The notes: a model not told the origin generated them from the sequence alone. Shown: positions 46,919 through 64,000, numbered from the stretch's first letter. The stretch is DNA of 64,000 nt from Bdellovibrionota bacterium FG-1 (GCA_051382295.1 JBBCAW010000013.1:82610-146609); one strand, 5' to 3'. Numbers and translations: made by a program.

Positions 46919-47089
46919 AAGGGTTCATTATATCGTAAATGGGGGTATCCGAGAGTATAAAGTATTGAATTAGACCACGCCGGTTTGCTGAAGGTAAGGC
47001 TGGCAATGGGCAACGTATCACCTTTACGAACCTCTGCTTGGGCGATAGTCTCGAAGTTCAACCAAGTAGTGACCGTGAAGGGATTGTCT

Positions 47090-48031
47090 ATGCCTCTATT
47101 TCAAATTGATGACAAGAAGTTGACACTGATGAAGCCAACCAACTTCGGCATGGAGAAAGACCTCCAGCAACTCATCGAAACTAATCTGACCACGGTCTTC
47201 GATTGCCGGTTTGTTGCATCGGAGTTCCCAACAGGGGCGGAGCACGCGGGCCGGATTGACAGCTTGGCGCTCTCTGAGGACAGCAACCCGGTCATCATCG
47301 AATACAAAAAGGTCGAGTCTTCCGAACTCATCAATCAGTCGCTTTATTATCTTTCTTGGATCAACGACCATCGCGGTGACTTCGAGATCGCCGTCCACAA
47401 GGCCCTGGGCAATACCACCAAAGTCGATTGGTCTGATGTCCGGGTGATCTGCATTGCGCCAGGGTACAAAAAGTTCGATCTTCACGCAGTCAAGGTCATG
47501 GGGGCGAACATCGAACTTTGGCAGTACCGCCTGTTCGATAACGGGGCGCTCTACTTTGAAGAGATATTCAGAAAGAGCACTTCATTGATCGGCGATGTGG
47601 GTGTTTTGAGCGATGGTAAGAACCCAATCATGGTCGCGGCAGGGAAGAAAGCTGCCGCCACCCGAGCAAGCGGAAGTTATACTGTCGAACAGCATCTCGA
47701 AGACATCGACGAGGAAATAAAGGAAATCGCGGTTGAACTCAGGGAGCAAATCTTGAACATCGGCGAGTCCGTCGAAGAATCACCCAAAAAGTTCTATATC
47801 GCTTACAAGGTCGCACAGAACTTCGTCTGCCTTGAAACCAACAAGAAGAAGATCACGCTGTTCCTCAAACTCAATCCGTCGGAACTTGGCAAGCTCCCAG
47901 TGAATGGCCGGGACGTTACTGGGATTGGCCATCAAGGAACCGGAGATTTTGAATTGACCGTCAGATCCAAGGATGAAATCGAAGAGGCAATCAAGTTCAT
48001 CCGCAGGGCGTTTGAGCGAGTGGGCGGCTAA
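47090..48031 (+). CDS. PD-(D/E)xK (NucS/DUF91-like) nuclease fused to a DUF5655-like domain
   Basis: EKDLQ, GRIDSLAL...PVIIEYKK and Q...Y; C-terminal KFYIAYK..NF and RDVTGIGHQGTGD.E. Confidence 0.85.
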   Translation: MPLFQIDDKKLTLMKPTNFGMEKDLQQLIETNLTTVFDCRFVASEFPTGAEHAGRIDSLALSEDSNPVIIEYKKVESSELINQSLYYLSWINDHRGDFEIAVHKALGNTTKVDWSDVRVICIAPGYKKFDLHAVKVMGANIELWQYRLFDNGALYFEEIFRKSTSLIGDVGVLSDGKNPIMVAAGKKAAATRASGSYTVEQHLEDIDEEIKEIAVELREQILNIGESVEESPKKFYIAYKVAQNFVCLETNKKKITLFLKLNPSELGKLPVNGRDVTGIGHQGTGDFELTVRSKDEIEEAIKFIRRAFERVGG

Positions 48032-48230: not shown

Positions 48231-48505
48231 TACAATACTCGCTTCAGGCAGCGGAAGTATGCGCTCGCGATTTACCGCCCCGAGAATGACGATTACGTTA
48301 TTCCGAGACCTTGGAATTGCAACTGTAGGCTATTTATACATTTCAGCATACCACCTCACTCAGGCATTGCCTTGACTAATAACTTGTTAGTTATTAAGCA
48401 GATAGGATATGTTAATTGCAAAAGGCGTCTATCAACTACGCTAGAGTAGCGTGCCCCCTTTCGGGGCCTAATTTGTCCATGCAGAAATGGCCGAGAGGGA
48501 TCTCT

Positions 48506-49140
48506 ATGCGAAAATTGGCGACCTATGTACTTACTGGACTCGGATTATTAAGCAGCGTGGCATTGGTCTTGACGTTCATCGGCAGAGGCCAAGTTTTTAT
48601 CCTGGTTCCCGGATTTCTTTGCCTCTTGACGTTGCTGCCTGTGTGCCGCACCAAAGTTGGGCAGTTTGTATCCCTCCTTTGCGGCGCAGCCTTGCTCTTA
48701 ACGACCATTTCTGGAGCGTTTTTCGCGCTCATACCCCAGCGGAGCCATGATTGGCTCGACTACACCACCTACCTGGGCGACGGAACGATTTTACTTTTTG
48801 CTGGCGCCCTCTCTTTTACCAGCGGCGGCGGTCTTACTGTGCGAAAACTGGCGACCTATGTGCTTACTGGACTCGGATTACTGAGCAGCGTGGCATTGGT
48901 CCTGACGTTCATCGGCAAAGGCCAAGTTTTTATTCTGGTTCCTGGATTTCTTTGTTTATTAACATTACTGCCTGTGTCCCAAACCAAAGTTGGGCAGTTT
49001 GTATGCCTCCTTTGCGGCGCAGCTTTGCTATTAACCATCATTTCTGGAGCATTTTTCGCGCTCATACCCCAGCGGAGCCATGATTGGCTCGACTACACAG
49101 TCTATATTGGTGACGGAGCTGTTTTACTTATCGTTGGCGC
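48506..49140 (+). repeat. 333-bp-period direct repeat
   Basis: Copies start at 48506 and 48839 and are highly similar at the DNA level. Confidence 0.9.
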
Positions 49141-49162
49141 TCGAGAACTGTTCGCCGATTAG
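48506..49162 (+). CDS. Membrane protein formed by internal tandem duplication (2 x ~4 TM)
   Basis: RKLATYVLTGLGLLSSVAL...HDWLDYT occurs twice. Confidence 0.75.
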   Translation: MRKLATYVLTGLGLLSSVALVLTFIGRGQVFILVPGFLCLLTLLPVCRTKVGQFVSLLCGAALLLTTISGAFFALIPQRSHDWLDYTTYLGDGTILLFAGALSFTSGGGLTVRKLATYVLTGLGLLSSVALVLTFIGKGQVFILVPGFLCLLTLLPVSQTKVGQFVCLLCGAALLLTIISGAFFALIPQRSHDWLDYTVYIGDGAVLLIVGARELFAD

Positions 49163-49208: not shown

Positions 49209-49508
49209 CTAAAATTTAAACTCAGGAAAGGCGTACTGATGAGCATGGCTCAAAGGATCGGAAAAGTGCATGACCGACGACCCCGCATGATCGACATGGA
49301 CCGACATTTCGCTGAGGTTGTGGTGGCCGTCGAACACATTCTTGCCACCCAGGACGTTCGCCTCACTATGGTGAGCCAAGTTGCCATGTGAATCGTAGTG
49401 GTCATGGCCACCGAAAAGATTCTTGAAAGATACGGATGGCGAGGAGCCGTCCTGATGAAAATGTTGAGTGGCATCGCCAAAATGGCTTCCTGAATCGTAA
49501 CTATCCAT
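49209..49508 (-). CDS. Small His/Ser/Gly-rich repeat protein, last gene of the dynamin operon
   Basis: 99 aa; NLFGGHDHYDSHGNL / NVLGGKNVFDGHHNL; starts 3 nt after the dynamin stop. Confidence 0.7.
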   Translation of the reverse strand: MDSYDSGSHFGDATQHFHQDGSSPSVSFKNLFGGHDHYDSHGNLAHHSEANVLGGKNVFDGHHNLSEMSVHVDHAGSSVMHFSDPLSHAHQYAFPEFKF

Positions 49509-49511
49509 TTT

Positions 49512-51332
49512 TTAAACCCCCCAGCGACTATTCTCCGCCTTTTTTTTCGCGGTTACCAATTCCTGCCTGAGTCCGGTTAGACGCACCAACACCGCCTCGA
49601 AATCCTTGTCTTTTCTATGGGCCGCAACAGTGGTGCCACTCTTTATGGCCAGCTCCTGTTCTACAGAGGCCTTAACTTGCTTCAGTCGGGAAAAAAATTG
49701 TCCTTCGGCGTTTTCGCGAACTTTTGCCGCACGGGCATGGATATGCCGTGTAACCTCAGCTTCGATTTTTCCAAATGCTTCATCAAGGGCTTTCTCAAAT
49801 GCAGGGATTACCTTTGACTTGGCTGCTGTTACCTCGTTTTTCAAGAGTAGTTCTCTAATCTGGGGGAATCCGACCATCGAGACTATTGGAAACAAGAACC
49901 CCACACCGCAGACTGCAAGGGCGATTGCTCCTATGGCGGCAATCCCGCCCGCAAAAATCTGAGAATTACTGCCAATATCGACCGTGATTTCCATATCTGG
50001 CGTCAAACTTGAATTCTCGTTTAAAGAAGAAACGGGAGAATTCTTAAGCTGGACTAGATTTTGAAACTCTCTCTGAAGGCCTTCAGCGAGAACCTTCGCG
50101 AGATTGGCCAGCAACCCTTCAAGTGCCTCACCATGAGTCTCAAGCCACTGTCGAACGCCCCTTCGAACGAGTGAGGGCACCCGATTTTCTATGAATTCCT
50201 TGAACTGAGGGCCAGAATAGGCGTTAATCTCTTCAAGTATCGATGTCCGAATTCCCTCCTTCAGGGCATTCACGGACTTACAGGTCATCGCGATAAACTC
50301 ACGTTCGCGGTCTTGAACATACTCGGCGATTTTCTTACTTTTATCCTGCTTCTCTTCTAGAGCGCGAGTTATCCTCGCGATTTCTCCTTTGAGTTCCTCC
50401 GCACCGGCATTCGAGTTTCTGCGCGCGATTTCGACCTCTTCAATCAAGTGCGATAGTATTTCGGAACCACGGCGCTGAAAAGTCTCTGATCGCAACTGCG
50501 CGGCGCTACCGGTCTCCAAAAGTGCGCCGATTGTCCTCTCGACTTCTCCTATTCCAGATGATGCGAGAAGGTCCGCCTTCCCTTCGACCTTCCCTGCTAG
50601 AGCCTGCTTAGCGCTCAGAGGAAGGACTTTAAATTCCCGCCCAAAAACAGCATGAAGACGCCGGCATGCCGTTTCAATCACGCGTGGGCGATCCTCGGTT
50701 TTGGCTAGACGGTCGATATGGTTCAAAATAAAAACGACACGATCCAAACCGACTCGAAGAACGCTGTCCTCCAAAAACGTTTGCTCAGATTTCCTCAATG
50801 CTGCAGTGGCATCAAGCAGGAAAATGACAACATCCGCTCTGGGGATATACCGGGCAGCCACTTCGGATCGCTGCTCATTCAAATCCTGAACGCCCGGAGT
50901 ATCTACTATGAAGAGGTTTTGTCTGAGAAACTGATTTGGGATCGCTAACTCAAGATAAGAACATTCCCTAGCGTCGAAATTCCCCTCAGCGGTAAAACGG
51001 TCGAGCGCCCCCTCAGAGTAATCCAGCTTTTCAATCGCTCCATCGGTCTTATGAATAAAAATGTGAGCTTCCGAGGCCCACCTGACTACATTAAGAGTCG
51101 TGGTGGTTGGGGTGGGTCCGACCGGCAAGATGTTTTGCCCTAGAAGGGCATTTACGAACGTAGATTTTCCTCTGTTGAACTCTCCCACAATAACGATCGT
51201 AAAAAGGCCGGTTTCAAGATCGGTGTTAAATTCGTCAATCAGTGGCTTGCACGCGAGAGATTCGAGACAGCCTCCAGCAGCGGTGGCAGCAGCCCCCACA
51301 ATTTCAATTACTTTGCTTTCTTGGCTGGCCAT
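49512..51332 (-). CDS. Dynamin-like GTPase 3
   Basis: GEFNRGKS, PTT, DTPG and NHID; hydrophobic paddle GGIAAIGAIALAV; AGGAGGTG RBS. Confidence 0.93.
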   Translation of the reverse strand: MASQESKVIEIVGAAATAAGGCLESLACKPLIDEFNTDLETGLFTIVIVGEFNRGKSTFVNALLGQNILPVGPTPTTTTLNVVRWASEAHIFIHKTDGAIEKLDYSEGALDRFTAEGNFDARECSYLELAIPNQFLRQNLFIVDTPGVQDLNEQRSEVAARYIPRADVVIFLLDATAALRKSEQTFLEDSVLRVGLDRVVFILNHIDRLAKTEDRPRVIETACRRLHAVFGREFKVLPLSAKQALAGKVEGKADLLASSGIGEVERTIGALLETGSAAQLRSETFQRRGSEILSHLIEEVEIARRNSNAGAEELKGEIARITRALEEKQDKSKKIAEYVQDREREFIAMTCKSVNALKEGIRTSILEEINAYSGPQFKEFIENRVPSLVRRGVRQWLETHGEALEGLLANLAKVLAEGLQREFQNLVQLKNSPVSSLNENSSLTPDMEITVDIGSNSQIFAGGIAAIGAIALAVCGVGFLFPIVSMVGFPQIRELLLKNEVTAAKSKVIPAFEKALDEAFGKIEAEVTRHIHARAAKVRENAEGQFFSRLKQVKASVEQELAIKSGTTVAAHRKDKDFEAVLVRLTGLRQELVTAKKKAENSRWGV

Positions 51333-51352
51333 AAGCTCACCTCCTATTGACT

Positions 51353-52999
51353 CTAATTTACCAATTCCCAGAGTTTATCTGCGGATTCCAACACTGTTCG
51401 CACTCTACTCAAGAGTCGTTCCGCATCTGCCACCTTGACCGATGGCGCCAAGGCTTGCCGAATTAAGCGCGTTTCAGTCTTGCATTCCCAGATGCGATTG
51501 ACTGCAACCCACTTTATTTTCTGAACAAGAGTGAGCCTTAATGCAGATTCCAAACGATCTCGAAGCTCTCCAATGGTACTCCGTATTGCAATGAACTGCT
51601 CTTTTCTTGCTTCGGCCAGTTTTTCCTGCATCAGATGTTGCTCAATAAATGGTAACGCTACTAACGCCGCCAGGCCGTACAACCCAAGAGTTCCGATAAC
51701 AAATGGTATGGTAGTAAAGGCGATGATTTGATTTAAAGGCTTTGATATCCATTCCTCTAACGGACCGAGCCCAGCGTTGGCGTCGCTTCTTGGGATATTG
51801 TCAACATCGGGCGGGCTGGTTGCTCCAGACACGACCTCAGTCGTCGTGAACTTTGCCCATTGTTCGACGATTTTCTTGTCCCACTGTTCAACAGTTGAAA
51901 TTAGCCACGTCTGAAGGAGGTTTTTATATTCGATGGGATCTTCAACGGACTGACAGCGTTGGACAGCTTCCTTTTCAGCGGCGTCCAAAAAAGCGTGCAT
52001 TTCCTTTTCTAACGCAGACCTCGCCTTAGCAAGCTCAACGGCGTCCTTCCTCGTTCTTGCCGCAAGACTCCTTAGCTTATCTAGCGTTTCAGCGCTCAAT
52101 CGTCGACCATTTTTAAGTGGATCTGAGAGGCTTTGAATCTCATTAAGCAGCACCGCTTCGGCAGTTTTAAGGAGGAAGTGTGTGCGTTCCCTTTTCCCAT
52201 CTTCACGTCGAAGTTGGATCTTTGCGGCCAAGCGTTCAATTAAAGCCGCGCCACAATTGGGTAGGCTAACTGATGGTTGCGCCGGAAGGCACTCAAAGGC
52301 AGAGTTTTGCTTTGCTGAAACAACCCAGATGGGGCCTGCATCTAAACCGCTTGGACCAAGTGTGTTCAGCAATCTTGTCCGGGCGGCTTTTGCAATTTGA
52401 TCAGGTGCCTCACGTACTCGGTCTAGACCATTGATAACGATACTTAGGCACGAGCGGCTTACGGAAAAAAGACGCTCCTTGAGAAAAATTGCTTCGCTCT
52501 TTTTTAGAACGGCGGATGCAGACAATACGAGAACGATCCCATCGCACTCCGGTAGCAAGTTGTACAAAACAGACGCGTCGGAGTTACGAAGATCGTTTAC
52601 ACCCGGTGTGTCAATAATTTCTACAAGCTCTTGCATAGAGGGGTGCGAAAGAACCGCCGCATTGATTTTCGAGCCAGCTTCCAATGTAAGCTCATTGGAA
52701 CCGGCCATGATTTCGTTGTCCTTATAGGTCTGCGTTCCACTTTGGCGCGACAGTGACAGCTCTCGATTGGCACCATATCGGACTCGTGTGATCACGCCCG
52801 TCGTCGGCGTAACATCGGTCGGTAGTATTGATTCGCCCAGGGCGCGATTTACTAGAGACGTCTTGCCAACGCTGAATTCACCGACAAACGCGATTGTTAG
52901 CAGCCCCTCTCGGCGAATCCTGGGCAGGGGCTCTGTTAAGCCGAGCTTCGTCAGTTCATCTGAGATTGCTTCAAGCTCTTTTAGGGTGTTATTTTTCAT
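51353..52999 (-). CDS. Dynamin-like GTPase 2 (divergent)
   Basis: GEFSVGKT, PTT, DTPG and NGLD; paddle IPFVIGTLGLYGLAALVAL. ATG 52999 is 1 nt after the Clp stop. Confidence 0.9.
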   Translation of the reverse strand: MKNNTLKELEAISDELTKLGLTEPLPRIRREGLLTIAFVGEFSVGKTSLVNRALGESILPTDVTPTTGVITRVRYGANRELSLSRQSGTQTYKDNEIMAGSNELTLEAGSKINAAVLSHPSMQELVEIIDTPGVNDLRNSDASVLYNLLPECDGIVLVLSASAVLKKSEAIFLKERLFSVSRSCLSIVINGLDRVREAPDQIAKAARTRLLNTLGPSGLDAGPIWVVSAKQNSAFECLPAQPSVSLPNCGAALIERLAAKIQLRREDGKRERTHFLLKTAEAVLLNEIQSLSDPLKNGRRLSAETLDKLRSLAARTRKDAVELAKARSALEKEMHAFLDAAEKEAVQRCQSVEDPIEYKNLLQTWLISTVEQWDKKIVEQWAKFTTTEVVSGATSPPDVDNIPRSDANAGLGPLEEWISKPLNQIIAFTTIPFVIGTLGLYGLAALVALPFIEQHLMQEKLAEARKEQFIAIRSTIGELRDRLESALRLTLVQKIKWVAVNRIWECKTETRLIRQALAPSVKVADAERLLSRVRTVLESADKLWELVN

Positions 53000-53000
53000 A

Positions 53001-54836
53001 TCATTGCCACCTGAGCGCAATCTTCCCTTCGGTCACGTCTATGATAACGGTTTCGCCGGACGTGGCCGCTTCCCTTTTCAAGGTTTCTAGGGCCAACGGC
53101 CCAAGAATCATATCGTCGATCGCGCGACCAAGAGGTCTTGCACCAAAAGTCAGATCGGCGCAGGTACCCAATACGAGTCCAACCGCTGCTTCGGTTACTT
53201 TCCAGGTCATGTGTCTTTGAGATGCCCACGATTCAAGTTTCTTCTCGATCTCCTTTTGAGCAATCAATCGGATATCTTGAGCCGTAAGTGGGTCGAAACA
53301 TACGACCGAATCAAACCTATTTACGAACTCTGGGCGCAGCATGCGTGCCAGTTGTTTTCGCACCTCGGTCTGTTCGGCCCGTGCAACCGGGAGATTGCTC
53401 GTGAAGAGGAAGATGAACTGGCGAAAATTTAACGTCTTACCCGCCGGAGTGGTGAAGCGCCCATAGTCGAGAATTCCCAGTAAGGCGTCGAAAAGCTCCG
53501 GGGCTGCCTTTTCAATCTCGTCAAATAAAAGAATTCCGCCTCCAGGGTTAGCCAACAACGCGGCCTCGATGGTTCCGGGCTTTCCGTAACCCGCAAAGCC
53601 CGGGCCGGCACCGAAGAGTTTCGTTGTCCCCGCCATGTCCTGTAACTCGCCACAGTCGCATCTCCAAAGTCGCGCTTGGTCGTCGAAAAGGAGTCCTGCT
53701 AATGCATATGCCAATGCTGTCTTGCCAACCCCAGTGGGTCCAACAAATAGGATCGACGCGGCGGGCTTCGTCTTGCCGGAAAAGCCTGCTGCTATTCTTT
53801 GAACGGCGCCTTCAAGGGCGTCCTTGGCTCGGTTTTGACCAATCACTAATTTGTCGAGAACCGATCTGGCCTGAAGCGCCTTCTCAGGTGTAAGGCGAGA
53901 GAGCCCACCGCCTTTGACGCCATAAAAGCCCTCGGCGGCAGAGCGCACCGCCTCGCCATCGAGCACTCCGGCTGGTTTGATATCAAGAATCTTTTTTGAA
54001 GTAGCGAGGGCACCTGTGTTGTCAACGGGGTCGCTCATTTGCTTCAATAGCTCGCTCAGCAACTGATGCATTGTCTCCAGCTGCTCACACGGCCCGTCCC
54101 CCGCTGCGTCCTCGCCAAACTCTTTGAGGGCATGATTCAGCAATTCAATACCCTTTGCTGGAAATCGGCGATCAGGCTGAAATTCCGAAGCTAGGCGTAT
54201 TGCCTCATCTATTGCATCTGAGGCAAGGACAACGCCTACGCTGGTGGACCGATGTGATACGAATTCGTAGAGAATGCTTTTGAGTTCTGCTCCTTCTGGC
54301 TCGGCGACAACAATCGTCTTAAATCTTCGAGCAAATGGAGTATCCCGTCGCTCCATTTCTGCCCATTTGTCAGCGGTCGTAGCCCCGATCACTCGTAGCT
54401 TGCCACTACTAAGGTGGGTCTTCAGGATTTCAACGGCATCGTGATTGCCTTCCACTGTTGTACCGAGGCCCAATAGGGTGTGGATCTCATCGATGAATAG
54501 GACGCAATCGCCGCTATCATTGAGGGCATCAATGACTTCCTTAAGGCGCTCCTCGAACTGTCCCCGATAGACTGTACCGGCAATCAAATCATTGACTCTA
54601 AGGGAATGAACAGACTTCGATTTTATCGTGTTTCCAACTCGTCCCTGGACAATGCGAAACGCCAACCCTTCAACAAGAGAAGTTTTACCAACCCCGGCGT
54701 CACCAACCAATACGACATTTCCCTTTCTGGGATCGTTTAGCCAGCGGAGCAACTCTTCGACGTAAAGCTCCCTGGACGCCCACCGAATGCCGCGCTTCTT
54801 TACTTCATCATTAAGGTTGTTGGAATAGGGAATCAC
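53001..54836 (-). CDS. Clp/Hsp100-family double AAA+ ATPase lacking an N-domain
   Basis: GDAGVGKT, AGTVYRGQFEER, LFIDEIH; GPTGVGKT, LFDEIEK, RPEFVNRFD and GARPL. Confidence 0.93.
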   Translation of the reverse strand: MIPYSNNLNDEVKKRGIRWASRELYVEELLRWLNDPRKGNVVLVGDAGVGKTSLVEGLAFRIVQGRVGNTIKSKSVHSLRVNDLIAGTVYRGQFEERLKEVIDALNDSGDCVLFIDEIHTLLGLGTTVEGNHDAVEILKTHLSSGKLRVIGATTADKWAEMERRDTPFARRFKTIVVAEPEGAELKSILYEFVSHRSTSVGVVLASDAIDEAIRLASEFQPDRRFPAKGIELLNHALKEFGEDAAGDGPCEQLETMHQLLSELLKQMSDPVDNTGALATSKKILDIKPAGVLDGEAVRSAAEGFYGVKGGGLSRLTPEKALQARSVLDKLVIGQNRAKDALEGAVQRIAAGFSGKTKPAASILFVGPTGVGKTALAYALAGLLFDDQARLWRCDCGELQDMAGTTKLFGAGPGFAGYGKPGTIEAALLANPGGGILLFDEIEKAAPELFDALLGILDYGRFTTPAGKTLNFRQFIFLFTSNLPVARAEQTEVRKQLARMLRPEFVNRFDSVVCFDPLTAQDIRLIAQKEIEKKLESWASQRHMTWKVTEAAVGLVLGTCADLTFGARPLGRAIDDMILGPLALETLKREAATSGETVIIDVTEGKIALRWQ

Positions 54837-56731
54837 TTCAGCCGCGTCCCCGTAGTGAAAAGGTTGGTCAGTTCGGAGTCGATGGCTTTTAGCTCGTTCT
54901 CCATTTGAGTCAATTTTCGCAGATTCTCCTCGGCCGACTGCTGAGCGGACTGGCGCTCTTTGAGAAGGTTAAGGAGCTGCTGCTGGAGTTCCGAAAACCT
55001 GCCGTCTACCTCCTTTTGGATAGCTGTCTTTAACGATGAAAGTTTTTGCTCCCAGCCCACCTCGAAGGACTTGACGTGCTCCGGAATGAGTTCCGAATAC
55101 TTTAGATGGACCTGGGCCTTTATCTTTTCAAGAACGCTTGGCCGGGCAAGGGTGTCTAAGAATCCTTGGAAATGCTTCTGTAAACCCAGTAGAGCACCGA
55201 TAGCGACCGGCAAACTCAAAAACCAGCCGGCCAGGAATGCTACGCCAAATTGTAGGGCTACTCCAATCTCTGCGCCGCCCTTTTCAGCATCAAATTCAGG
55301 AACGGAAAGGTTGATATCCTGACTCGCACCAATCGCATCAAACGTTTTTCCAAGAGTATCTGTCCAAATTTTGTTGAGCCTCTGACTGGCGCGATCAAAC
55401 GCCTTTCTCAGGCTGGTTTGCTGCTCGGAACGTAAGTCTTGTTGTAACTTTGTTTGTAGCGGCGCAACTATGGCTTCGAGGTGCTGCTTTATCTCGGCCT
55501 CCTCCAATGATCCGGCATATTCATCGAGCCCCGCCTCAAGGGCTTTTGAGATTTCGCGGAGTCGAGTGTTTAAGGCGCGAGAAAGTTCAAATCCTTTCGT
55601 GGTAAGCGAACTGTCGAGCTCCGCCATCAACACGTCAATCAGCTCCTGAGTTCTTATTTTCTCCTTCTCCAGTAGTGCGATGGCGGAGGATAGTTTTTGC
55701 TCGGACGCAGAAGCGCCAGTTTTCAAAAGTGGAAATGTTCGCTCAAGCAGTTCTTTGACGGCAGTATGGCCACGAGCAACGGGCTTTTCCAATTTCGCAC
55801 GGCCCCGCTCTGAAACCAGAAAGGCCGAAAGGTTCCTTTCAAACTCTGTGAAGCCAGACTTAACAAGCGGTAGAATGGACTCTTCGCTGGGTGGTGCCGC
55901 TCGACCAGTGCGGATCTCAAGCGTGTATAGAGCACTCACTGGAAACACCTGCGTTGTTTCAATTTGGGCTTCTTTATGAAGCTGCTCCTGTACATGCTTT
56001 TGCACTTTTTTTACGTTGGCCAAATTCTCCTGATCAATCTTGTTAATTACGAAGAAGAAACACTTAATGTCCTCCTTCATGATTCGATCCCTCAAAAAGG
56101 TGAACTCGGAGCCCGTTGCCGCCTGATCCACTTTGAAAAGAAAAATCACAGCGTCAACAGTAGGTAAAAGCCCGTAGGTGATCTCTACGCGCAGATCATC
56201 AGTGTCGTTTGTTCCGGGTGTATCGATAATTTCAACTCCGGCTGGAAGTGCTGGCGTGGGAAACGTAATCTGAGAAAACTTGATGGCCTGAAGGTTTGCG
56301 CAGGCCTCTGCATAGCGCCGCTTTTCGGCGAGACTTTCATCGGCTGCCTGGTCAGGTGCGATCAGTTTACGGAACTCAGAAAGAGTAATGCATTTGTGGT
56401 CTACATCCGGATCTCTGTATACGAGCTTATAGTTCTCCTCGGTTCCGAATTTGATACGATTGATAATGGCTGTTGTTGGCGCGTAAGACGAGGGTAAAAC
56501 ATCCGCGCCCAAAAGCGCATTGATCAGTGTCGACTTGCCATGGGAAAACTCGCCCACTACCGCGATTGAGAATCGATCCTCGTTCATGGCGGCAATATCA
56601 TCGCGAAGGAGCTTACTCACGCTAGACATGGCCACCACGTCGGCGATATCCGCTATTCTTCGCAGCCGTCTTTCAATCGCCTGTCGTAGGGCAGAATATT
56701 CCCCTAGATCCAGGCCGGATTTAAGATCCAT
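54833..56731 (-). CDS. Dynamin-like GTPase 1
   Basis: GEFSHGKS, PTT, DTPG and NKID; paddle GVAFLAGWFLSLPVAIGALLG; C-terminal coiled coil. Confidence 0.93.
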   Translation of the reverse strand: MDLKSGLDLGEYSALRQAIERRLRRIADIADVVAMSSVSKLLRDDIAAMNEDRFSIAVVGEFSHGKSTLINALLGADVLPSSYAPTTAIINRIKFGTEENYKLVYRDPDVDHKCITLSEFRKLIAPDQAADESLAEKRRYAEACANLQAIKFSQITFPTPALPAGVEIIDTPGTNDTDDLRVEITYGLLPTVDAVIFLFKVDQAATGSEFTFLRDRIMKEDIKCFFFVINKIDQENLANVKKVQKHVQEQLHKEAQIETTQVFPVSALYTLEIRTGRAAPPSEESILPLVKSGFTEFERNLSAFLVSERGRAKLEKPVARGHTAVKELLERTFPLLKTGASASEQKLSSAIALLEKEKIRTQELIDVLMAELDSSLTTKGFELSRALNTRLREISKALEAGLDEYAGSLEEAEIKQHLEAIVAPLQTKLQQDLRSEQQTSLRKAFDRASQRLNKIWTDTLGKTFDAIGASQDINLSVPEFDAEKGGAEIGVALQFGVAFLAGWFLSLPVAIGALLGLQKHFQGFLDTLARPSVLEKIKAQVHLKYSELIPEHVKSFEVGWEQKLSSLKTAIQKEVDGRFSELQQQLLNLLKERQSAQQSAEENLRKLTQMENELKAIDSELTNLFTTGTRLK

Positions 56732-56850
56732 TGACCCACCCTCATTTATTCGTCCAGCTCTCAAGTATAAAGCGGCCAATGTGATAACGCGCAGAGTTAA
56801 ATTCAGTGTTTTCTTATAGCTACGCCGCGTTACCTCTTGGGCCTAGTGCT

Positions 56851-56886
56851 TTTCAGCTCGAAGTTTAGTTTCAGCTCAAAGTTTAG
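56851..56886. repeat. Tandem 18-bp direct repeat abutting the IS end
   Basis: TTTCAGCTCGAAGTTTAG TTTCAGCTCAAAGTTTAG (1 mismatch). Confidence 0.85.
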
Positions 56887-57102
56887 TGTCGTTGCAAAGG
56901 GACTTTGTCCGGTTAATTACAATGCGATTCTGTCCGCCTATCGGCGTCATAGGGGCAGAACTTTTGGCAAATATGGTACCTTGATTAGGAATTTCAGGAT
57001 GAAGCAAAAGGGAACATGTCCGAATCCGTGTGCGTGACCCTATCGGTGGCGGTGGCGGAATCCGCCTCGGTAACGGTCACCGCTTCAGCTAACCGCCACG
57101 GC

Positions 57103-57438
57103 CTACGCCTTGGCATGAGTGAGTCGCCATAAGAGAGCCAAAATGCGATCAAGCACTGCATCCGCTTGTTGTGCTTGAGTGGCATCGACATAGCCCCAGC
57201 CGTGAGCAACTGAAAGCGCAGCACGCACTTCAGCCGCGCTGCCTGCGGCGATGCGATAGGCATGCAGGCGGTCCTTGCCCTGCCTACGAGCGCCCTCGCT
57301 AATGTTGAGCGGCACGGACGATCCGGCGCGCCGGATCTGGTCAGCAAGACTGCGGTCATGAAACGCAATAGCGCTCACTAAAGGCCTGAGCATCGGGATG
57401 AGCGAGAGTGAGACATCGTAAGCTTGAAATCGAGCCAT
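57103..57438 (-). CDS. Four-helix-bundle protein (23S rRNA IVP / TIGR02436-like)
   Basis: LADQIRRAGSSVPLNISEG and IAAGSAAEV; GGAGG RBS. Confidence 0.9.
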   Translation of the reverse strand: MARFQAYDVSLSLIPMLRPLVSAIAFHDRSLADQIRRAGSSVPLNISEGARRQGKDRLHAYRIAAGSAAEVRAALSVAHGWGYVDATQAQQADAVLDRILALLWRLTHAKA

Positions 57439-57631
57439 GAGAGTGAACCTCCAAGAGTGCGTGTAGAGCCGCCCGACCGTCGGGCCGCTTCACTCCAAAA
57501 GCGGCACGGCAGGTCGGGGCTGACTTGCTTGAAGGATGAGCCGAGAAGGTGTCTTGCAAAGCGGGCGTGACAGCGCGAGTTTTTTCGCGCTGGCGCGATC
57601 GTTTTGCTCACCTTGGAGACGCAAACAAAGA

Positions 57632-57660
57632 TTTCAAGGGGGTACCCAACCCCCTTGAAA
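57632..57660 (-). terminator. 12-bp hairpin downstream of the transposase, probable terminator
   Basis: TTTCAAGGGGGT-ACCCA-ACCCCCTTGAAA followed on the minus strand by TCTTTGTTT. Confidence 0.5.
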
Positions 57661-57708
57661 CCACGCGATCGTCGTCTATGGGGCAAATAAAGAGGAGGTC
57701 AAAAAAGG

Positions 57709-59382
57709 CTATCCGGCAGCGGCGAGTTTTTTAGCCTGCCGCTGCTCATAGCGCGAGCCCTGGAGTTTGAGGAAGATCTTCACCGCCTTGTAGGTGGGTG
57801 ACTCGATATCCAGTGCATACTGACAGGCCTCATTAACAGCCCCGGGGGAATAGTCCTTCTCAAAGCCAATAATCCCGTAAATCGTCTGAGTGTCGATAAA
57901 CCCCTGGCCTCGCTCCATGACTGCCAACACCATCTGATCCACGTTCGCGCCGAGTCGAAGTGCAGACTTTCGGTAGGAGGATCCGGGTTCCTTGGCTCGC
58001 CTCCACGGTCCCAAGTGCTCGGGTTTGGTCGAGCACTGCGCATAGGGTCCCGTCAACTTTGGGTGCGTTTCGATCCGTTTTCCTTCATGGTGAATATGAA
58101 TTCTTCCATCCTCCTCGAATACGCTTATCTTTTGCCCCACATAGATTTCGGCCACAGAGTAATAGCGATCCAGATAGTTCACGTGTCCATCCATCCTCAC
58201 CTTTTTGGCATCAATGGCAGTCACCGATGGCGGTAAAACGGCTACCGACGCCATCGCTTTTTCAGGGACATTCACCCGGCTGACTTGAATCTCCTTGCCC
58301 GCGAAGAAGACCTTCCAGGAGAGATCTTGGTACGTTCTAATTTCCATCTTTTGCTTGTAAATGGAGTGTTTTAGTGAGGATTCGATCCGGTAGATTTCAT
58401 TGTTCCAGCTATAGGTATGGTCCCGGTTTACCTTGCGATATTCCTTGAGGCAAAAAATCTCATTCAGATCGATCCCACTCGGGAGTGGTTTATAGGCCGT
58501 TTGAAGATTGGCTGGCGTGACTTTGAACTTCGTCGCGTACTCATTGGGGAGAAATTGTTCCTGCAGAAATGCATTGGCCGTTTCATAACTGCAAATGTTC
58601 CTGAGCCTCATCTCTGCAACCAAACGATCTTGGAACGTATCCCACAGTCTCTCGATCCGTCCCTTGGCTTCAGGCGAGTTGGCAAAGAGAATGTGAATTC
58701 CAAGCTCTTTTAAAGCTCTTTTCACCTGAGAAAAGTGCGCACGCTTGGGACCCCCAAAGATCCCTGCCCGATCCACGTACAGGATCTGAAATATTCCCCG
58801 TTTTTCTATGATTTTTTGAAGCACTCGCATGCACGAAATCGTGTCTTCAGCCGGAAAAAACTCACCAAAGGGAACGTCGCTGTCAGCATCGTCAATCGCC
58901 GCGATCAAACACGAGGTCTTGCCTCCAAACCAGGGGTGAGGACTTCCGTCCATCTGGAGCATCAGCCCAGTTTGCTGCATTCGATCTCGCCGCCTGCGTA
59001 CCTTGGAGCCGCGGCGCTTTGCCCTCTTCACCATTTTGATCTCGTGGCACCATTGCCGGAAGGTTTCCCGGTTGACGCTAATTTGCTCATCGCTCGCAAG
59101 CTTTTCGAGACAGTGGGTCAGATTGAAGTCGAAATACTTCTCCTTCACCAGTTTTTGCACCTGTTGCTTGAGGCTGTCCTGAGTTTTATTAGAGGGGGCT
59201 CTCCCGCTATTGCCGTGCTTAACAAAAAGTAACCCGTGTTCGCAGTAGTCCTCCAGGTACCGCCGCAGGGTTCGTTCCGTCACATTCAGGATCTTTTGGG
59301 CATCTTTTCTAAAAATAGTTCCCGTCGAAACTTTGACGACAACATCCAATTCCAACTGTTCTTTTGCGCTCATCGTGAACAC
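57709..59382 (-). CDS. DDE transposase: IS1202/ISNCY-type core with an IstA-like C-terminal extension
   Basis: HGN.GR.P, QMDGS.H.WF, IDDA, YVDR and SPEAKGRIERLW.TFQDRL; tail DGHV.Y...YYSV...T.PEH...AC..AL...TYKAVK.FL. Confidence 0.9.
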   Translation of the reverse strand: MFTMSAKEQLELDVVVKVSTGTIFRKDAQKILNVTERTLRRYLEDYCEHGLLFVKHGNSGRAPSNKTQDSLKQQVQKLVKEKYFDFNLTHCLEKLASDEQISVNRETFRQWCHEIKMVKRAKRRGSKVRRRRDRMQQTGLMLQMDGSPHPWFGGKTSCLIAAIDDADSDVPFGEFFPAEDTISCMRVLQKIIEKRGIFQILYVDRAGIFGGPKRAHFSQVKRALKELGIHILFANSPEAKGRIERLWDTFQDRLVAEMRLRNICSYETANAFLQEQFLPNEYATKFKVTPANLQTAYKPLPSGIDLNEIFCLKEYRKVNRDHTYSWNNEIYRIESSLKHSIYKQKMEIRTYQDLSWKVFFAGKEIQVSRVNVPEKAMASVAVLPPSVTAIDAKKVRMDGHVNYLDRYYSVAEIYVGQKISVFEEDGRIHIHHEGKRIETHPKLTGPYAQCSTKPEHLGPWRRAKEPGSSYRKSALRLGANVDQMVLAVMERGQGFIDTQTIYGIIGFEKDYSPGAVNEACQYALDIESPTYKAVKIFLKLQGSRYEQRQAKKLAAAG

Positions 59383-59580
59383 CTCGCCGCCCCCTTATCA
59401 TCAACTGGTTGAACTGCTTGATGATTCGAAGACTATCGCGCCTTTCTAATGACGCGGGTTGGCGGTCAAAGTCCCTTTGTAATTAAGACCGGACAGAATC
59501 GCTTTGTAAGGACAAACAACTAAATAAGAAACGGTTGCGAGCCGATGAGAGTTTGTCAAACCACCTCATCGGGAGCAACA

Positions 59581-62500
59581 ATGACCACCAGGGCGAAACC
59601 AGCAGTCATAGATCTAAAGGGCCGATATTTTTTTCAACAGCTCGGCAGCATTCAGTCGGCGACGTTTGGAAAGGTGTATGTCCATGAGGATACACCTAGG
59701 GAAGGGATACTTTTTGTAACTAATTCCCATTTTGGATACTCTGTTGCACCAGACATTCTTGGACTCCAAGGACATGCCAGTCACTTTCAAGAACTTCCGT
59801 GCGTCCTTGAAATTGAAGTTACGCAGGCCTCCATTAGAATTGTTTTTACGAATAAAAGGGAAATCAAATTTATACCGGAGAGGTCGGACGATCAGGAGGA
59901 AGATTGGCCTCAATTCGTAAAAATCGCGTTATCCCTTCGGGCTAATGTTGTTAGAGCAGACATTGTAGATGACTACAGAGCGGCAATTAAAACATCAATG
60001 GACGCAAAAGAAAAATTCAAGCAACTTGTGAGTCTTACGAAGCGTGATAACCTCTCAAGTATTATCCCTTACGAGGCGGCCTGCTATGCCCGAGACGCTG
60101 GTGACTTTGAAAACGCGATTCAATACTTTCGACTAGCGGAATCACGAGGGTTTGCGGATCTTGCACAGCTCCATTGCAGTTTTGCGCTGGCATATCAGCA
60201 ATCGGGCAATTTTGTACAGGCTGAACGTTACGCTAGCACATCACTAGAACATGCGGATCTAGCTACTGCGCACATGATAGTTGGGCAATGTTTGAGACAG
60301 CAACAACGAATATCTGAAGCAAAGGAGCATTTTCTAGATGCAATAAAAATTGTCCCCACGAATGCCAATGCTGCATACCACCTCGCGCTTATTGCTTTTG
60401 ATGAAGAAAATAAAACCGAACTTGCTAGCCGAATTGAATCGTTGAAATCAATAACGGGTACAAATTCAATTCAATACCGTACCGCAAAAGCATATCTTGA
60501 AAAGCTTAACGGAGACCAAAAAGCTGAATTATTTGCATGGCTAGAAGTTCTGGAGATTCAACCTGAAAACTCAGAAGCTCTACGATTAGCTGCATTACTA
60601 AATTGCGATTTTGACAATGGCGAAGGTGCGCTTCCGCTAGCCAAAAAATTATTAGCCCTGGACGAACAGAATCTCTTATATCAATACGTATATTGCCGCG
60701 CACTTTCGACAGCGAAACGCCATGCTGAATTACTTCAGTTCACTCCGCGCAGTAGCTCTGACATGAACGACGATGACACTGGATTGTGTTTAGAAGTTGT
60801 TATGCTCCGCGCACATGCACTGTGCGACACAAAACGCTTTGATGAAGCAAAAAATGAAGTGGATGCAGCACGGGTTCTTCTTCGGCGGCTACATGCGACC
60901 GACAATAGAGAAGCGATAAAAACCCACGCGCTCATACTTGATGCATTCGATGGGCAAATACTGGTTGAAACGGGCCATGGAACTGACGCCATCCCGTTTT
61001 TGGAGCGAGCGTCGCGGCTCCAAAAGACAGATGCCACAAAAAAATATCACGCAGAAATTGCCGACTTGCTAGCGAAGGTCAGGCAAATCGGGCAGTCGAG
61101 AGACGAGCCAACAGTAAACGCTTCAAATGCTGGACCAAGCCTCACAGGAAACCGCAGCGAGCTGCGACGAGTTGTCCAGAATTTGTCGTATACCCTACGA
61201 TTGGACGCCCGTTTAAAGGAACAATACGACGGGTCCCAACAACTACTTGCAGATTTCGACGCGCCATTGATGATCGCAGTGTTGGGAGAATTCAATGCTG
61301 GTAAATCGACTTTTGTTAACGCACTCGTTGGGAAAGAGATCCTACCAATGGATATCCTTCCAGCAACCGCTACCATTAATATTATCAGGTACGGCGAGCC
61401 TTCGGCCCGCATTCTTTGGCAAGACGGTTCAACCGAGCAAATCCCCCCTGAACAGATCTATTCCTACTTATCAGCGAAAAATAACATAGGCGCCAAACTT
61501 CTCCAGAAAATACGTTGCGTCGAAATATTTCAACCTCTGGACAGTTTGAAAAACTTTACAGTGGTGGACACGCCCGGACTAAATGCTCCTATAGCTGAGC
61601 ATCGCCAGACAACCGAGCGATTCCTGGAGCGTGCTGACACGATAATCTGGCTATCGAATGCTACTCAACCTGCAAAAAAAACAGAACTATCAGAAATTGT
61701 TCGACTGAATTCAGCCTCGAAAAAAGTAATCGCCGTACTCAATCACTGGGACCGCACAAAGCAGTCGGACCGCGTTACGCTATTGGAGCAGACAAAACTC
61801 CGTCTACAGGAGACGACCGTCGGAGTATTTCCAGTTTCTGCAAAGGCTGCGCTTCTTGCTCGTGCAAAAGGAGATCAATCAGCCAGTAATGATTCCGGAA
61901 TTTCACACGTCGAACAGTTCTTAGTGGAAAACATTGGCCCAATTCGAATGGAACTCAAGCACGAGGCCCTTCGCTATAGAGCGATAGCGCTTGTGCGAAA
62001 GGCCCTGTTAGTAAAGCAACACGCGATGCAAAAGCGCGATGATCGTGACCAGAGATTACAAGACGTAATGGCTCTCATCGACAAAGAATTTCGTCAGTTG
62101 ATTGAAGAAGTCATTCCAGTGCTTTCAGCTCAAATAAAAAAAGAATCTCTGATCTCTGCATCCTGGCTTGGATCAGAAATCGCGAATATGCGAGAGAAGA
62201 GCAAAACTATTCAACAATCGGATTTTGAATATCTAGAAAAGAAGTTAAAGAGCGGCCTTATTTCTCCAATAAATGTTTGCCGTGAATCACTAAACAAACG
62301 AATTCACCAGGCCATCGGATCAATCAAGGAAGGTTTTGAAAAGTTCTTTCGGATCGAACGAGAAGAGGAAGGCAAGATTGTTCTGCAGATAATTGATGCC
62401 ATCACCCCAATTCACTGCCTTACCTACGATCCGTTCGACACTTACCTTGATGGCATCACGAGTGGTTTTTTCATAAATCCGAGAGAGTGTCTGAATACTT

Positions 62501-62769
62501 TTCTCGAACCACAGGAAAGCGCAACCACTGAATCAATTTCTCGGGTAATTAAGTTATATTATGCTGTTAACTGGCAGAAAGAGGCAATATGTCTGGTTGA
62601 CATGATGAAGAAACAGCTTGAACAAATTTGCGCCAATATTGCCGAGATCGAGCAAGGGCGCTTCGCGCTCGAGATCGATTCTTTTTTCTCTCCGCTCGAG
62701 GGCATTCAAGAACAACTGATTTCAACTAAGGACTCGCAGTTAAAAACCCCTGCCGCACGGGCTGCCTAG
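59581..62769 (+). CDS. TPR-repeat / dynamin-like GTPase fusion protein
   Basis: TPR-like helices at ~aa 170-500, then GEFNAGKS, PAT, DTPG and NHWD; GGGAG RBS before ATG 59581 (the ORF opens at 59545). Confidence 0.9.
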   Translation: MTTRAKPAVIDLKGRYFFQQLGSIQSATFGKVYVHEDTPREGILFVTNSHFGYSVAPDILGLQGHASHFQELPCVLEIEVTQASIRIVFTNKREIKFIPERSDDQEEDWPQFVKIALSLRANVVRADIVDDYRAAIKTSMDAKEKFKQLVSLTKRDNLSSIIPYEAACYARDAGDFENAIQYFRLAESRGFADLAQLHCSFALAYQQSGNFVQAERYASTSLEHADLATAHMIVGQCLRQQQRISEAKEHFLDAIKIVPTNANAAYHLALIAFDEENKTELASRIESLKSITGTNSIQYRTAKAYLEKLNGDQKAELFAWLEVLEIQPENSEALRLAALLNCDFDNGEGALPLAKKLLALDEQNLLYQYVYCRALSTAKRHAELLQFTPRSSSDMNDDDTGLCLEVVMLRAHALCDTKRFDEAKNEVDAARVLLRRLHATDNREAIKTHALILDAFDGQILVETGHGTDAIPFLERASRLQKTDATKKYHAEIADLLAKVRQIGQSRDEPTVNASNAGPSLTGNRSELRRVVQNLSYTLRLDARLKEQYDGSQQLLADFDAPLMIAVLGEFNAGKSTFVNALVGKEILPMDILPATATINIIRYGEPSARILWQDGSTEQIPPEQIYSYLSAKNNIGAKLLQKIRCVEIFQPLDSLKNFTVVDTPGLNAPIAEHRQTTERFLERADTIIWLSNATQPAKKTELSEIVRLNSASKKVIAVLNHWDRTKQSDRVTLLEQTKLRLQETTVGVFPVSAKAALLARAKGDQSASNDSGISHVEQFLVENIGPIRMELKHEALRYRAIALVRKALLVKQHAMQKRDDRDQRLQDVMALIDKEFRQLIEEVIPVLSAQIKKESLISASWLGSEIANMREKSKTIQQSDFEYLEKKLKSGLISPINVCRESLNKRIHQAIGSIKEGFEKFFRIEREEEGKIVLQIIDAITPIHCLTYDPFDTYLDGITSGFFINPRECLNTFLEPQESATTESISRVIKLYYAVNWQKEAICLVDMMKKQLEQICANIAEIEQGRFALEIDSFFSPLEGIQEQLISTKDSQLKTPAARAA

Positions 62770-62970: not shown

Positions 62971-64000
62971 ATGAGCAAAATTGATCAAAACCCTGGTATA
63001 AGAGATTTGGAAGGAATCTTATCGATCTTTGGTAACCGCAGACTTTCTTGTAAAATCGCTCGCCATTGCTTAGATTATTCACGCCTACATTGCTACCACC
63101 CGGAACAAGCAGACGGCAAAAAGTTTTTCGATGACTTCCCATCGTCTGAAGTAAAGACGGTTGCCCTTGCGATCGAGGACCAGTTTCGGAACCTGATCTT
63201 GGGCGAACGCGTCCACGGTGTACCCCTTGGCGAACTCAATGACCGGCGGTGGCAGGAGCATTGGCGATTTATCGCCTGGCTGGTCATTGACACAATCTCA
63301 GAGAGGTTTTTCCTTGAGCTAGACGGGTTAGGGATCTCAGAACTGCCCACGCTTCATGAATACACTTCGTTTAGCCAGAAAGCGGCACATGAGGAACTGC
63401 GGTCCGACATTTTAGAAAAACTTAATGGCGCACTTCGGGTTGCAAAAACTCGATCCAAAGAGGGAGTTGAATGCCGGATTAAGAATGATACGATTCTGTC
63501 CAAACTGGACTCGAACAAGGAATCCAATATCCACGCCAAATTGGCGTTGGAGCTTTGTAGTTACGGCCCCGCTAGCGCACGCGTATTTGGAATTTCCGTG
63601 ATAATGTTAAAACTTCTTCATCAGATGTTCAGCGAATCGAAACTATTTAATAACCCGAAAGCCGCAGCTACTGATTTTTGCAATTGCCTGCACTTTTTCT
63701 CAAGACTTCCGGTGCCTGACTCGAACCCTGTAGATGCTTATGCATCTTCGAATTTCGACTCGATGATCCACGATTCATCCGGAACACAATGGACCTATCC
63801 CATGAAAAAGTCCTGGTTAAACCAGCACCATAAATACAAAAAGCACTTTATGGATACCTTCGCCGAAGGAACTCTTTTCGCCCCAATGAAGAGCAATTCC
63901 ACGCTCACCCTTGAAAAACACCTCTCCAATGCCGCCGCCTTCACCTGCGCGCTAGGTCTACTTCGGTGCGGATTCAATGGCCACGGTCATACCGAAAAGG
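62971..64000 (+). CDS. Hypothetical protein, runs off the window end
   Basis: Not in the ORF track; hand-translated open frame of 343+ codons starting MSKIDQNPGIRDLEGILSIFGNRR, with no stop before 64000. Confidence 0.7.
   Translation, partial: MSKIDQNPGIRDLEGILSIFGNRRLSCKIARHCLDYSRLHCYHPEQADGKKFFDDFPSSEVKTVALAIEDQFRNLILGERVHGVPLGELNDRRWQEHWRFIAWLVIDTISERFFLELDGLGISELPTLHEYTSFSQKAAHEELRSDILEKLNGALRVAKTRSKEGVECRIKNDTILSKLDSNKESNIHAKLALELCSYGPASARVFGISVIMLKLLHQMFSESKLFNNPKAAATDFCNCLHFFSRLPVPDSNPVDAYASSNFDSMIHDSSGTQWTYPMKKSWLNQHHKYKKHFMDTFAEGTLFAPMKSNSTLTLEKHLSNAAAFTCALGLLRCGFNGHGHTEK

Follow-up and report, generated by a model that had tools for sequence, protein, structure and literature searches.

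Bacterial dynamin-like proteins are known as pairs, their partners and triggers are mostly obscure, and the mechanism of the Eleos system is unsolved. According to the portions of two preprints that were available to us, Eleos consists of two genes, defends B. subtilis against jumbo phages and depends on both of its P-loops (10.1101/2022.05.11.491447, 10.1101/2022.12.12.520048). Here we analyze a locus in Bdellovibrionota bacterium FG-1 that encodes four dynamin-like GTPases (dyn1, dyn2, dyn3 and a TPR-containing dynamin, TPR-dynamin), a Clp/Hsp100-type ATPase (Clp) and a 99-aa repeat protein, S. The window, i.e., the whole stretch of DNA that was analyzed, comprises 64,000 nt (GCA_051382295.1 JBBCAW010000013.1:82610-146609), and all positions are counted from its start; the parent assembly is a draft of 158 contigs with 97.7% completeness and 5.0% contamination. 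The main novelty of the locus is an apparently undescribed module, in which a dyn1-like gene (A-type), a dyn3-like gene (B-type) and S occur together with an accessory dynamin, along with a modelled contact between S and a dynamin stalk. The Clp is an elaboration of this module in a single genome.

An earlier note on this DNA, hereafter the original prediction, had described a single, tightly coupled minus-strand operon with the order dyn1, Clp, dyn2, dyn3 and a 99-aa open reading frame (ORF), had counted three paddle-bearing dynamins, and had added a divergently oriented TPR-dynamin. The gene order and the junctions, a 4-nt overlap followed by gaps of 1, 20 and 3 nt, were reproduced in our analysis. 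The genes are as follows:

54833..56731, minus strand: dyn1, A-type dynamin-like GTPase of 632 aa with a Dynamin_N domain, a predicted paddle at residues 487-518 and full-length relatives at 27-35% identity
53001..54836, minus strand: Clp/Hsp100-type two-ring AAA+ ATPase of 611 aa (AAA, AAA_2, ClpB_D2-small)
51353..52999, minus strand: dyn2, divergent dynamin-like GTPase of 548 aa with a Dynamin_N domain and a predicted paddle at residues 425-453
49512..51332, minus strand: dyn3, B-type dynamin-like GTPase of 606 aa with a predicted paddle at residues 456-492; its full-length relatives score 208-277 bits and adjoin A-type genes
49209..49508, minus strand: S, His/Ser/Gly/Asp-rich repeat protein of 99 aa with 15 His and 15 Ser, recognized by alignment and profile matches
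59581..62769, plus strand: TPR-dynamin, soluble, 1062 aa from the start at 59581, with TPR at residues 206-286 and the GTPase at 577-733

The TGA stop of dyn1 overlaps the GTG start of the Clp gene (GTGA), a single nucleotide lies between the Clp stop and the ATG of dyn2, the 20-nt gap between dyn2 and dyn3 holds an AGGAGG, and 3 nt separate dyn3 from S; Clp and dyn2 are each translationally coupled to their neighbor genes. All four GTPases exceed the Pfam cut-off for Dynamin_N of 27 bits (dyn1 96.8, dyn2 79.8, dyn3 96.4, TPR-dynamin 101.8), and their translations contain the GxxxxGK[ST], DTPG and N..D motifs, which are conserved in the family alignments. One hydrophobic stalk segment of 29-37 residues was found in each of dyn1, dyn2 and dyn3, in agreement with the expected three paddles, and none was found in TPR-dynamin or Clp. 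The match of dyn1 to Dynamin-like_hel_bact was weak (24.4 bits, under the cut-off of 28.3). The GTPase domain of all four proteins and, in dyn1, dyn2 and dyn3, a stalk with a paddle predicted from sequence assign them to the dynamin superfamily.

We compared the operon with 158 loci around relatives of dyn1, of which 79 came from species genomes and 79 from metagenomes; they are a sample from a set of at least 158. These loci were searched by tblastn with the window proteins and subsequently with profiles of A, B and S. A recurring gene order emerged, in which A-type, B-type and S genes succeed one another. Among the loci sampled, 18 carry a strong A-type gene and 14 of them extend far enough to be judged; B follows A in 13 of these 14 (the exception is locus L093), and in 11 of those 13, B is in turn followed by S. 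Locus L006 from Paenibacillus wynnii has no S. In locus L005 from Selenomonas montiformis, another dynamin lies between A and B, and B is followed by a 228-aa protein (15540-16226) that joins an S-like N-terminus carrying DPLAHAQEF to a C-terminal HNH nuclease domain (26.4 bits vs. a cut-off of 21.4). A long accessory dynamin was found in most module loci, where it bears Sel1, SH3, beta-helix, Zn-ribbon or TPR domains. The window holds A, B and S in module order, with Clp and dyn2 inserted between A and B. From these comparisons, A-B-S plus the accessory dynamin constitutes a rare, conserved and apparently undescribed module of the multi-dynamin family. The view of the four dynamins as one system can therefore be kept in part: dyn1 and dyn3, together with S, form the conserved core, and dyn2 is without a clear orthologue. 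The best matches of dyn2 in the related loci reached about 100 bits and covered the GTPase domain only, no clear orthologue was found in these loci, dyn2 scored 125 bits against the A profile and 143 bits against the B profile, and its stalk returned only generic dynamin and mitofusin-like leads in the ESM Atlas.

Two further features of the related loci concern S. The S-like fusion in L005 hints that S can carry an effector. In the closely related metagenome loci L095 (14232-16034) and L097 (14429-15937), two genes lie directly 3' of S, and they encode a PDZ/radical-SAM-like/DUF512 protein and a corrinoid adenosyltransferase.

The small repeat protein had been proposed as a component of the system, and its position next to dyn3-type genes in the related loci, together with a complex model that supports binding, identifies it as a genuine conserved partner. 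In a set of 5.8 billion proteins, the S family forms 61 clusters, none with a Pfam domain and all with the source name "hypothetical protein"; recognition of S by the ESM Atlas was uninformative (recognition 1602, top score 0.90, unnamed clusters). Its members combine GGxDxYD-like repeats with a C-terminal DPLxHAxxY tail (DPLxHAxEY), in which D84, P85 and L86 are invariant in the alignment. Modelling of the complex of dyn3 and S gave an ipSAE of 0.61 (runs of 0.58, 0.61 and 0.66), compared with 0.00 for the best of three controls. Of 157 solved complexes, 116 attained a value of 0.61, as did 2 of 215 mismatched pairs; these counts apply only approximately here, since the alignments were our own. 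The runs agreed in at least 54% of contacts, with a partner pLDDT of at least 61. In the modelled interface, residues 83-99 of S lie on dyn3 helices 331-359 and 399-422, and the invariant D84-P85-L86 of S is placed against K352-S353 of dyn3, which are likewise invariant in the alignments. The model thus supports binding of the S tail to the dyn3 stalk.

Kinship to Eleos raises the question of whether the locus is simply Eleos with extras and hence already described. LeoA and LeoBC, compared here as individual PADLOC models by E value and bits and with no pipeline thresholds applied, are the best PADLOC matches of dyn1 and dyn3 (about 1e-22 and 74-82 bits, on models of 559-601 positions): dyn1 matches LeoA at 1.5e-23 and LeoBC at 4.7e-22, spanning LeoBC positions 58-590 of 601, and dyn3 matches the two models at 1.9e-22 and 3.3e-21. 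The definition of Eleos as two adjacent dynamin-like genes, as given in the consulted parts of the sources, also speaks for this assignment (10.1101/2022.05.11.491447, 10.1101/2022.12.12.520048). However, every A- and B-type protein tested scored between 48 and 96 bits on the models of 559-601 positions, and because these scores are so low the A/B family falls outside the core of the LeoA and LeoBC models. In addition, neither a small third protein nor a repeat-bearing third dynamin is mentioned in the available text of the 2022 and naming preprints (10.1101/2022.05.11.491447, 10.1101/2022.12.12.520048). We thus regard an assignment to Eleos itself as very unlikely.

The fourth dynamin is separated from the operon by a mobile element:

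56892..59509: insertion element of 2.6 kb between dyn1 and TPR-dynamin, with paired 20-bp terminal inverted repeats

Two copies of the 20-bp repeat lie at 56892-56936 and the inverted copies at 59463-59509. The element carries a Mu/rve-type transposase gene (57709-59382, minus strand; Pfam Mu-transpos_C_2) and a gene for a four-helix bundle (57103-57438, minus strand; Pfam 23S_rRNA_IVP), is present once in the genome, and has a strong hairpin at 57662-57630, 3' of the transposase gene. With the element removed, the starts of dyn1 and TPR-dynamin lie about 230 bp apart in divergent orientation, and we conclude from this spacing that TPR-dynamin was once part of the same locus. The inverted-repeat analysis thereby bears out its predicted status as a divergent member, since it was the immediate neighbor of the operon before the insertion sequence (IS) arrived. 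Two direct 18-bp repeats, identical at 15 of 18 positions, occupy 56854-56889; they abut the left end of the element, about 125-160 nt upstream of the dyn1 start, and could be an operon operator or part of the element end.

The start of TPR-dynamin at 59581 is preceded by a GGGAG. Its GTPase is closest to those of long dynamins with an extended N-terminal part and a mid-protein GTPase; in loci of Myxococcota type and from soil, the genes for these dynamins lie downstream of a dyn3-like gene. An N-terminal TPR region was present in 6 of the 12 long dynamins scanned. Because its nearest GTPases occur in such similar long dynamins and half of those scanned carry TPR, we interpret TPR-dynamin as an accessory repeat-bearing dynamin of known architecture, although a one-to-one orthology to the accessory gene of the module would be loose. 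The original prediction had cast it as a sensor; the recurrence of variable repeat domains on accessory dynamins of related loci would fit such a recognition role.

Clp displays the two AAA+ rings of class I Clp/Hsp100 proteins, with Pfam domains AAA (41-175), AAA_2 (357-510) and ClpB_D2-small (517-598). In an alignment with ClpB and ClpA of the same genome, its first residues coincide with the start of the first AAA+ module. The N domain is missing, a short linker replaces the coiled-coil M domain of ClpB, and the D2 loop of the host ClpA (SLGLMPGD, carrying LGL), presumably the ClpP-docking loop, is deleted. Both Walker A and Walker B motifs are kept, with invariant GxGKT and DE columns in the alignment; the Tyr of pore loop 1 is retained, and Phe takes the place of the usual Tyr in pore loop 2. 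Clp scored far below the cut-offs of the NCBIfam equivalogs for ClpB (TIGR03346, 400.8 bits vs. 1232.1), ClpA (TIGR02639, 365.3 vs. 993) and ClpV (TIGR03345, 316 vs. 885) and is assigned to none of ClpB, ClpA/ClpC and ClpV; type VI genes were absent from the window ORFs that were scanned. Since a genuine ClpB (1332 bits, cut-off 1232) and ClpA (1023 bits, cut-off 993) are also encoded in the genome, the Clp of the locus is an extra copy. A recent duplication of a host Clp was considered and rejected, as Clp is 33% identical to the ClpB and 32% identical to the ClpA of this genome. Membership in PDC-M37 or Dodola was likewise rejected: the D2 ring alone matches these single-ring models, the PADLOC models concerned being DolB and PDC-M37B, and no partner gene was matched. 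As far as the consulted part of the source describes it, DolB of the Dodola defence system has a ClpB domain (PMC11514479). Elsewhere in the same genome, a 621-aa protein (G000:C67:26150-28015, L165 150-2015) has a Clp D1-type module alone at residues 350-613 and an N-terminal half without assignment.

The reading that we prefer, with slightly less than even confidence, is that the locus is a member of the A-B-S multi-dynamin family that was split by an IS, and in which Clp and dyn2 work in the assembly. A, B and dyn2 would then form a heteropolymer that is driven by GTP and sits on the cytoplasmic membrane, S would ride on the B stalk, and the repeat-bearing dynamin would provide target recognition. 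Clp, without a substrate-recognition domain of its own, could be recruited by the dynamin/S assembly and could thread one component, either a dynamin or S, such that the assembly would be taken apart or reset. ClpV acting with the type VI sheath and Vps4 with ESCRT-III would be parallels. That Clp has a dedicated role on the dynamin/S assembly is a tentative proposal with somewhat less than an even chance of being correct; it is favored by how tightly the genes are coupled, by their common codon pattern, by the fact that Clp has no targeting domain, and by the host already having ClpB and ClpA. The more elaborate proposal of a dynamin heteropolymer with its own Hsp100 "disassemblase", set atop a four-part system of A, B, S and a repeat-bearing sensor dynamin that serves cell-autonomous immunity, appears quite unlikely.

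A number of observations weigh against the preferred reading. A full HMMER scan of 1.84 billion representatives contained no Clp orthologue (best match 334 bits vs. 1359 for Clp itself), and a word-indexed search of 5.8 billion proteins returned nothing closer than 334-340 bits and 41% identity. A Clp-like gene within about 10 kb of the related dynamins was found in 0 of the 158 loci (tblastn, E ≤ 1e-5), and none of 28 viral loci had both a Clp and a dynamin, their matches being distant P-loop or generic Clp-D2 hits. The link between Clp and dynamins is known from a single genome, in a draft assembly. The profiles of A, B and S were built partly from loci that were later counted; tblastn with the window proteins alone gave the same picture for A and B and detected S in four loci. 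The GTPase of TPR-dynamin scored higher against the long partner of two-gene Myxococcota-type pairs (133-166 bits) than against the accessory dynamins of A-B-S loci (122-132 bits). Flanking ORFs rarely matched PADLOC at ≤1e-10 (5 of 93 in 11 module loci, comprising three unvalidated PDC candidates and two generic ATPase and HTH-type models), many flanks of the related loci look like ordinary metabolic or housekeeping genes, and no PADLOC match was obtained for the remaining 12 ORFs scanned in the window, of which seven lie in the island around the cluster. The original prediction had treated Clp as part of the system and had stated that it would fail if Clp and the small ORF did not co-occur with these dynamins in other genomes; this happened for Clp and did not for the small ORF. 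From the missing orthologues and the 158 loci without a Clp, we conclude that Clp is a single-genome addition.

These results invite the explanation that Clp and dyn2 are passengers, having entered a pre-existing A-B-S operon as a two-gene cassette or by separate captures, and that they are co-transcribed with the module while acting independently of it, e.g., in membrane-protein quality control. Counterparts of the two genes are missing from all 13 loci in which A and B are kept together, Clp is an orphan, and the island is rich in mobile DNA. Yet a 4-nt overlap and a 1-nt gap form the junctions of the pair, which has neither IS remnants nor repeats around it, and its codon usage fits the rest of the operon. 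The genome, moreover, already has ClpB and ClpA, and Clp is at most 41% identical to anything else and so did not arise by recent copying of a housekeeping gene. On balance we consider the passenger explanation rather unlikely and continue to favor a role of Clp and dyn2 within the assembly.

The setting of the locus points to a foreign origin. The first 42 kb of the window hold housekeeping genes (carB, greA, recG, recA, alaS and ssb, together with outer-membrane and efflux genes), and an island extends from about 42.8 kb to the contig end with an ISAZ013-type transposase, a DUF5655 protein, ORFs of unknown function and the dynamin cluster. The genome contains four strong Dynamin_N matches, all of them in the locus, and two others that are P-loop fragments of 21-23 bits. 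No dyn1 homologue at E ≤ 0.001 was found in 60 genomes of the same family or order, 40 of which are of high quality. Codon scores are uniform across the operon (-0.05 to -0.09), compared with +0.10 to +0.14 for the housekeeping genes, which served as the reference set, and IS elements lie on the flanks of the locus. Given the 60 relatives without a dyn1 homologue and the shared non-host codon pattern, the cluster was probably acquired horizontally and as a unit. The IS-rich context noted in the original prediction is evident in Pfam matches to the ISAZ013-type transposase (43937-44884) and the Mu/rve-type transposase of the insertion element (57709-59382). The ISAZ013-type DDE transposase gene (43937-45642, minus strand) seemingly consists of two overlapping ORFs of 315 and 253 aa, possibly owing to a frameshift. 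For a neighboring gene that had been taken for a PD-(D/E)xK nuclease, this assignment was not confirmed: the ORF at 46985-48031 matches DUF5655 alone in Pfam, besides PDC-S18 in PADLOC. The remaining neighbors are:

46985..48031, plus strand: DUF5655 protein, PADLOC defence candidate PDC-S18 (4.1e-107), a neighbor outside the operon
62971..63999, plus strand: ORF without assigned family, at least 343 aa, 3' of TPR-dynamin and running off the contig end

The latter ORF had no match in Pfam, PADLOC or NCBIfam and no tblastn match in the related loci. A 248-aa membrane protein (48416-49162, plus strand) is convergent with the operon end and consists of two near-identical halves of about 110 aa; it belongs to no Pfam family and has a weak PADLOC match to CARF-TM (1.4e-5). 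Riboswitch control of the operon was rejected for want of an Rfam match, as there was none at the gathering score in the whole window and none at E ≤ 1 in 56600-59700. Integration linked to a tRNA was also rejected, the window containing no tRNA gene. Scans for promoters and terminators yielded no more sites than shuffled sequence.

The cellular role of the cluster may lie in defence or in maintenance of the cell envelope. Next to the module, PDC candidates occur in this locus and in 3 of the 11 others. Separately, PDC-S01 (an AAA_14/DUF4143 ATPase, matched at about 520 bits) adjoins the dynamin module in the unrelated metagenome loci L102 (9830-11059) and L097 (6646-7866). Alternatively, the whole cluster could be an envelope-stress or membrane-repair system like DynA or the IniBAC of mycobacteria, in which Clp would extract damaged membrane proteins or recycle the dynamins. 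IniA is among the solved relatives (4e-11, 8e-9), three of the dynamins bear predicted paddles, the flanking genes of related loci are mostly not defence genes, and a dynamin-chaperone link is in print, at least in the part of the source consulted, for a cyanobacterial DnaK-domain gene downstream of a "chaperone clade" dynamin (PMC5827413). Such a role is at odds, however, with the patchy, island-borne distribution, the variable repeat domains on accessory dynamins, the fusion of an S-like domain to an HNH nuclease in one locus and the distant kinship to Eleos, and the resemblance of S to IniB is one of composition only. We therefore regard envelope stress or repair as an unlikely explanation of the cluster as a whole. 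The patchy island-borne distribution, the Eleos kinship, the swapped accessory repeats, the S-like::HNH fusion, the PDC candidates and the presence of Clp-D2-like ATPases in defence systems such as Dodola make a role in conflict or defence more likely than one in housekeeping. Overall, defence accounts for about half of our expectation, envelope maintenance for about a third and other roles for a small remainder.

The module supplies a testable third component for bacterial dynamins, i.e., S, whose conserved tail is modelled on invariant stalk residues, and the accessory dynamins with their swapped repeat domains look like recognition modules. It also provides one natural case in which an unfoldase without a targeting domain was inserted between dynamin genes. 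Should Clp act on the assembly, it would represent the first bacterial example of an AAA+ factor that recycles a dynamin polymer, and a disassemblase of this kind would, by analogy, be a prokaryotic counterpart of Vps4/ESCRT-III or ClpV/sheath applied to dynamins. Even otherwise, the locus identifies a branch of multi-dynamin systems that is so far undescribed. A literature search, with most subscription journals and supplements outside its coverage, yielded no description of the module and nothing relevant on a dynamin with an Hsp100 or AAA+ partner or on a three-dynamin operon, in line with the earlier view that an Hsp100 inside a multi-dynamin operon is uncharacterised.

Among known systems, the paired bacterial dynamins share the layout of GTPase, helical stalk and paddle with the proteins of the locus. 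The closest solved relatives are BDLP of Nostoc (2j68; 5e-24, 5e-21), the DLP1/DLP2 pair of Campylobacter (5owv) and IniA (6j72). In contrast to the present locus, BDLP, DLP1/DLP2 and DynA are pairs or a two-headed fusion, for which no S, repeat-bearing third member or AAA+ partner has been described. IniB is a small repeat-rich protein by composition, and IniBAC resembles the locus in that such a protein is encoded with two dynamin-like GTPases; it differs in having no Clp, and S is like IniB by composition alone. Clp shares two AAA+ rings, Walker motifs, pore loops and the D2-small domain with class I Clp/Hsp100 proteins, its nearest solved chains being those of ClpB (1qvr, 4.5e-95) and ClpC, but it is set apart by having no N domain, no M domain as in ClpB and no loop of the ClpA type and by scores below every NCBIfam equivalog cut-off. 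A membrane-remodelling dynamin is also linked genetically to an ATP-driven chaperone in the cyanobacterial "chaperone clade"; judging from the consulted text, that chaperone has a DnaK/Hsp70 domain and is not an Hsp100, and a single dynamin is involved (PMC5827413). Within the literature searched, and as far as its sources were available, these cyanobacterial DnaK-domain genes are the only dynamin-chaperone genetic link in print. Eleos, finally, has in common with the locus adjacent dynamin-like GTPases and an occurrence in islands across phyla (10.1101/2022.05.11.491447, 10.1101/2022.12.12.520048). The locus differs in its four dynamins, S, the repeat-bearing accessory dynamin and Clp, none of which is mentioned for Eleos in the available parts of these sources, and in that two adjacent genes do not make up the whole system, A and B being split here by Clp and dyn2. 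Taken together, the sequence comparisons suggest that the A-B-S family is a distant sister of Eleos and not a member of it.

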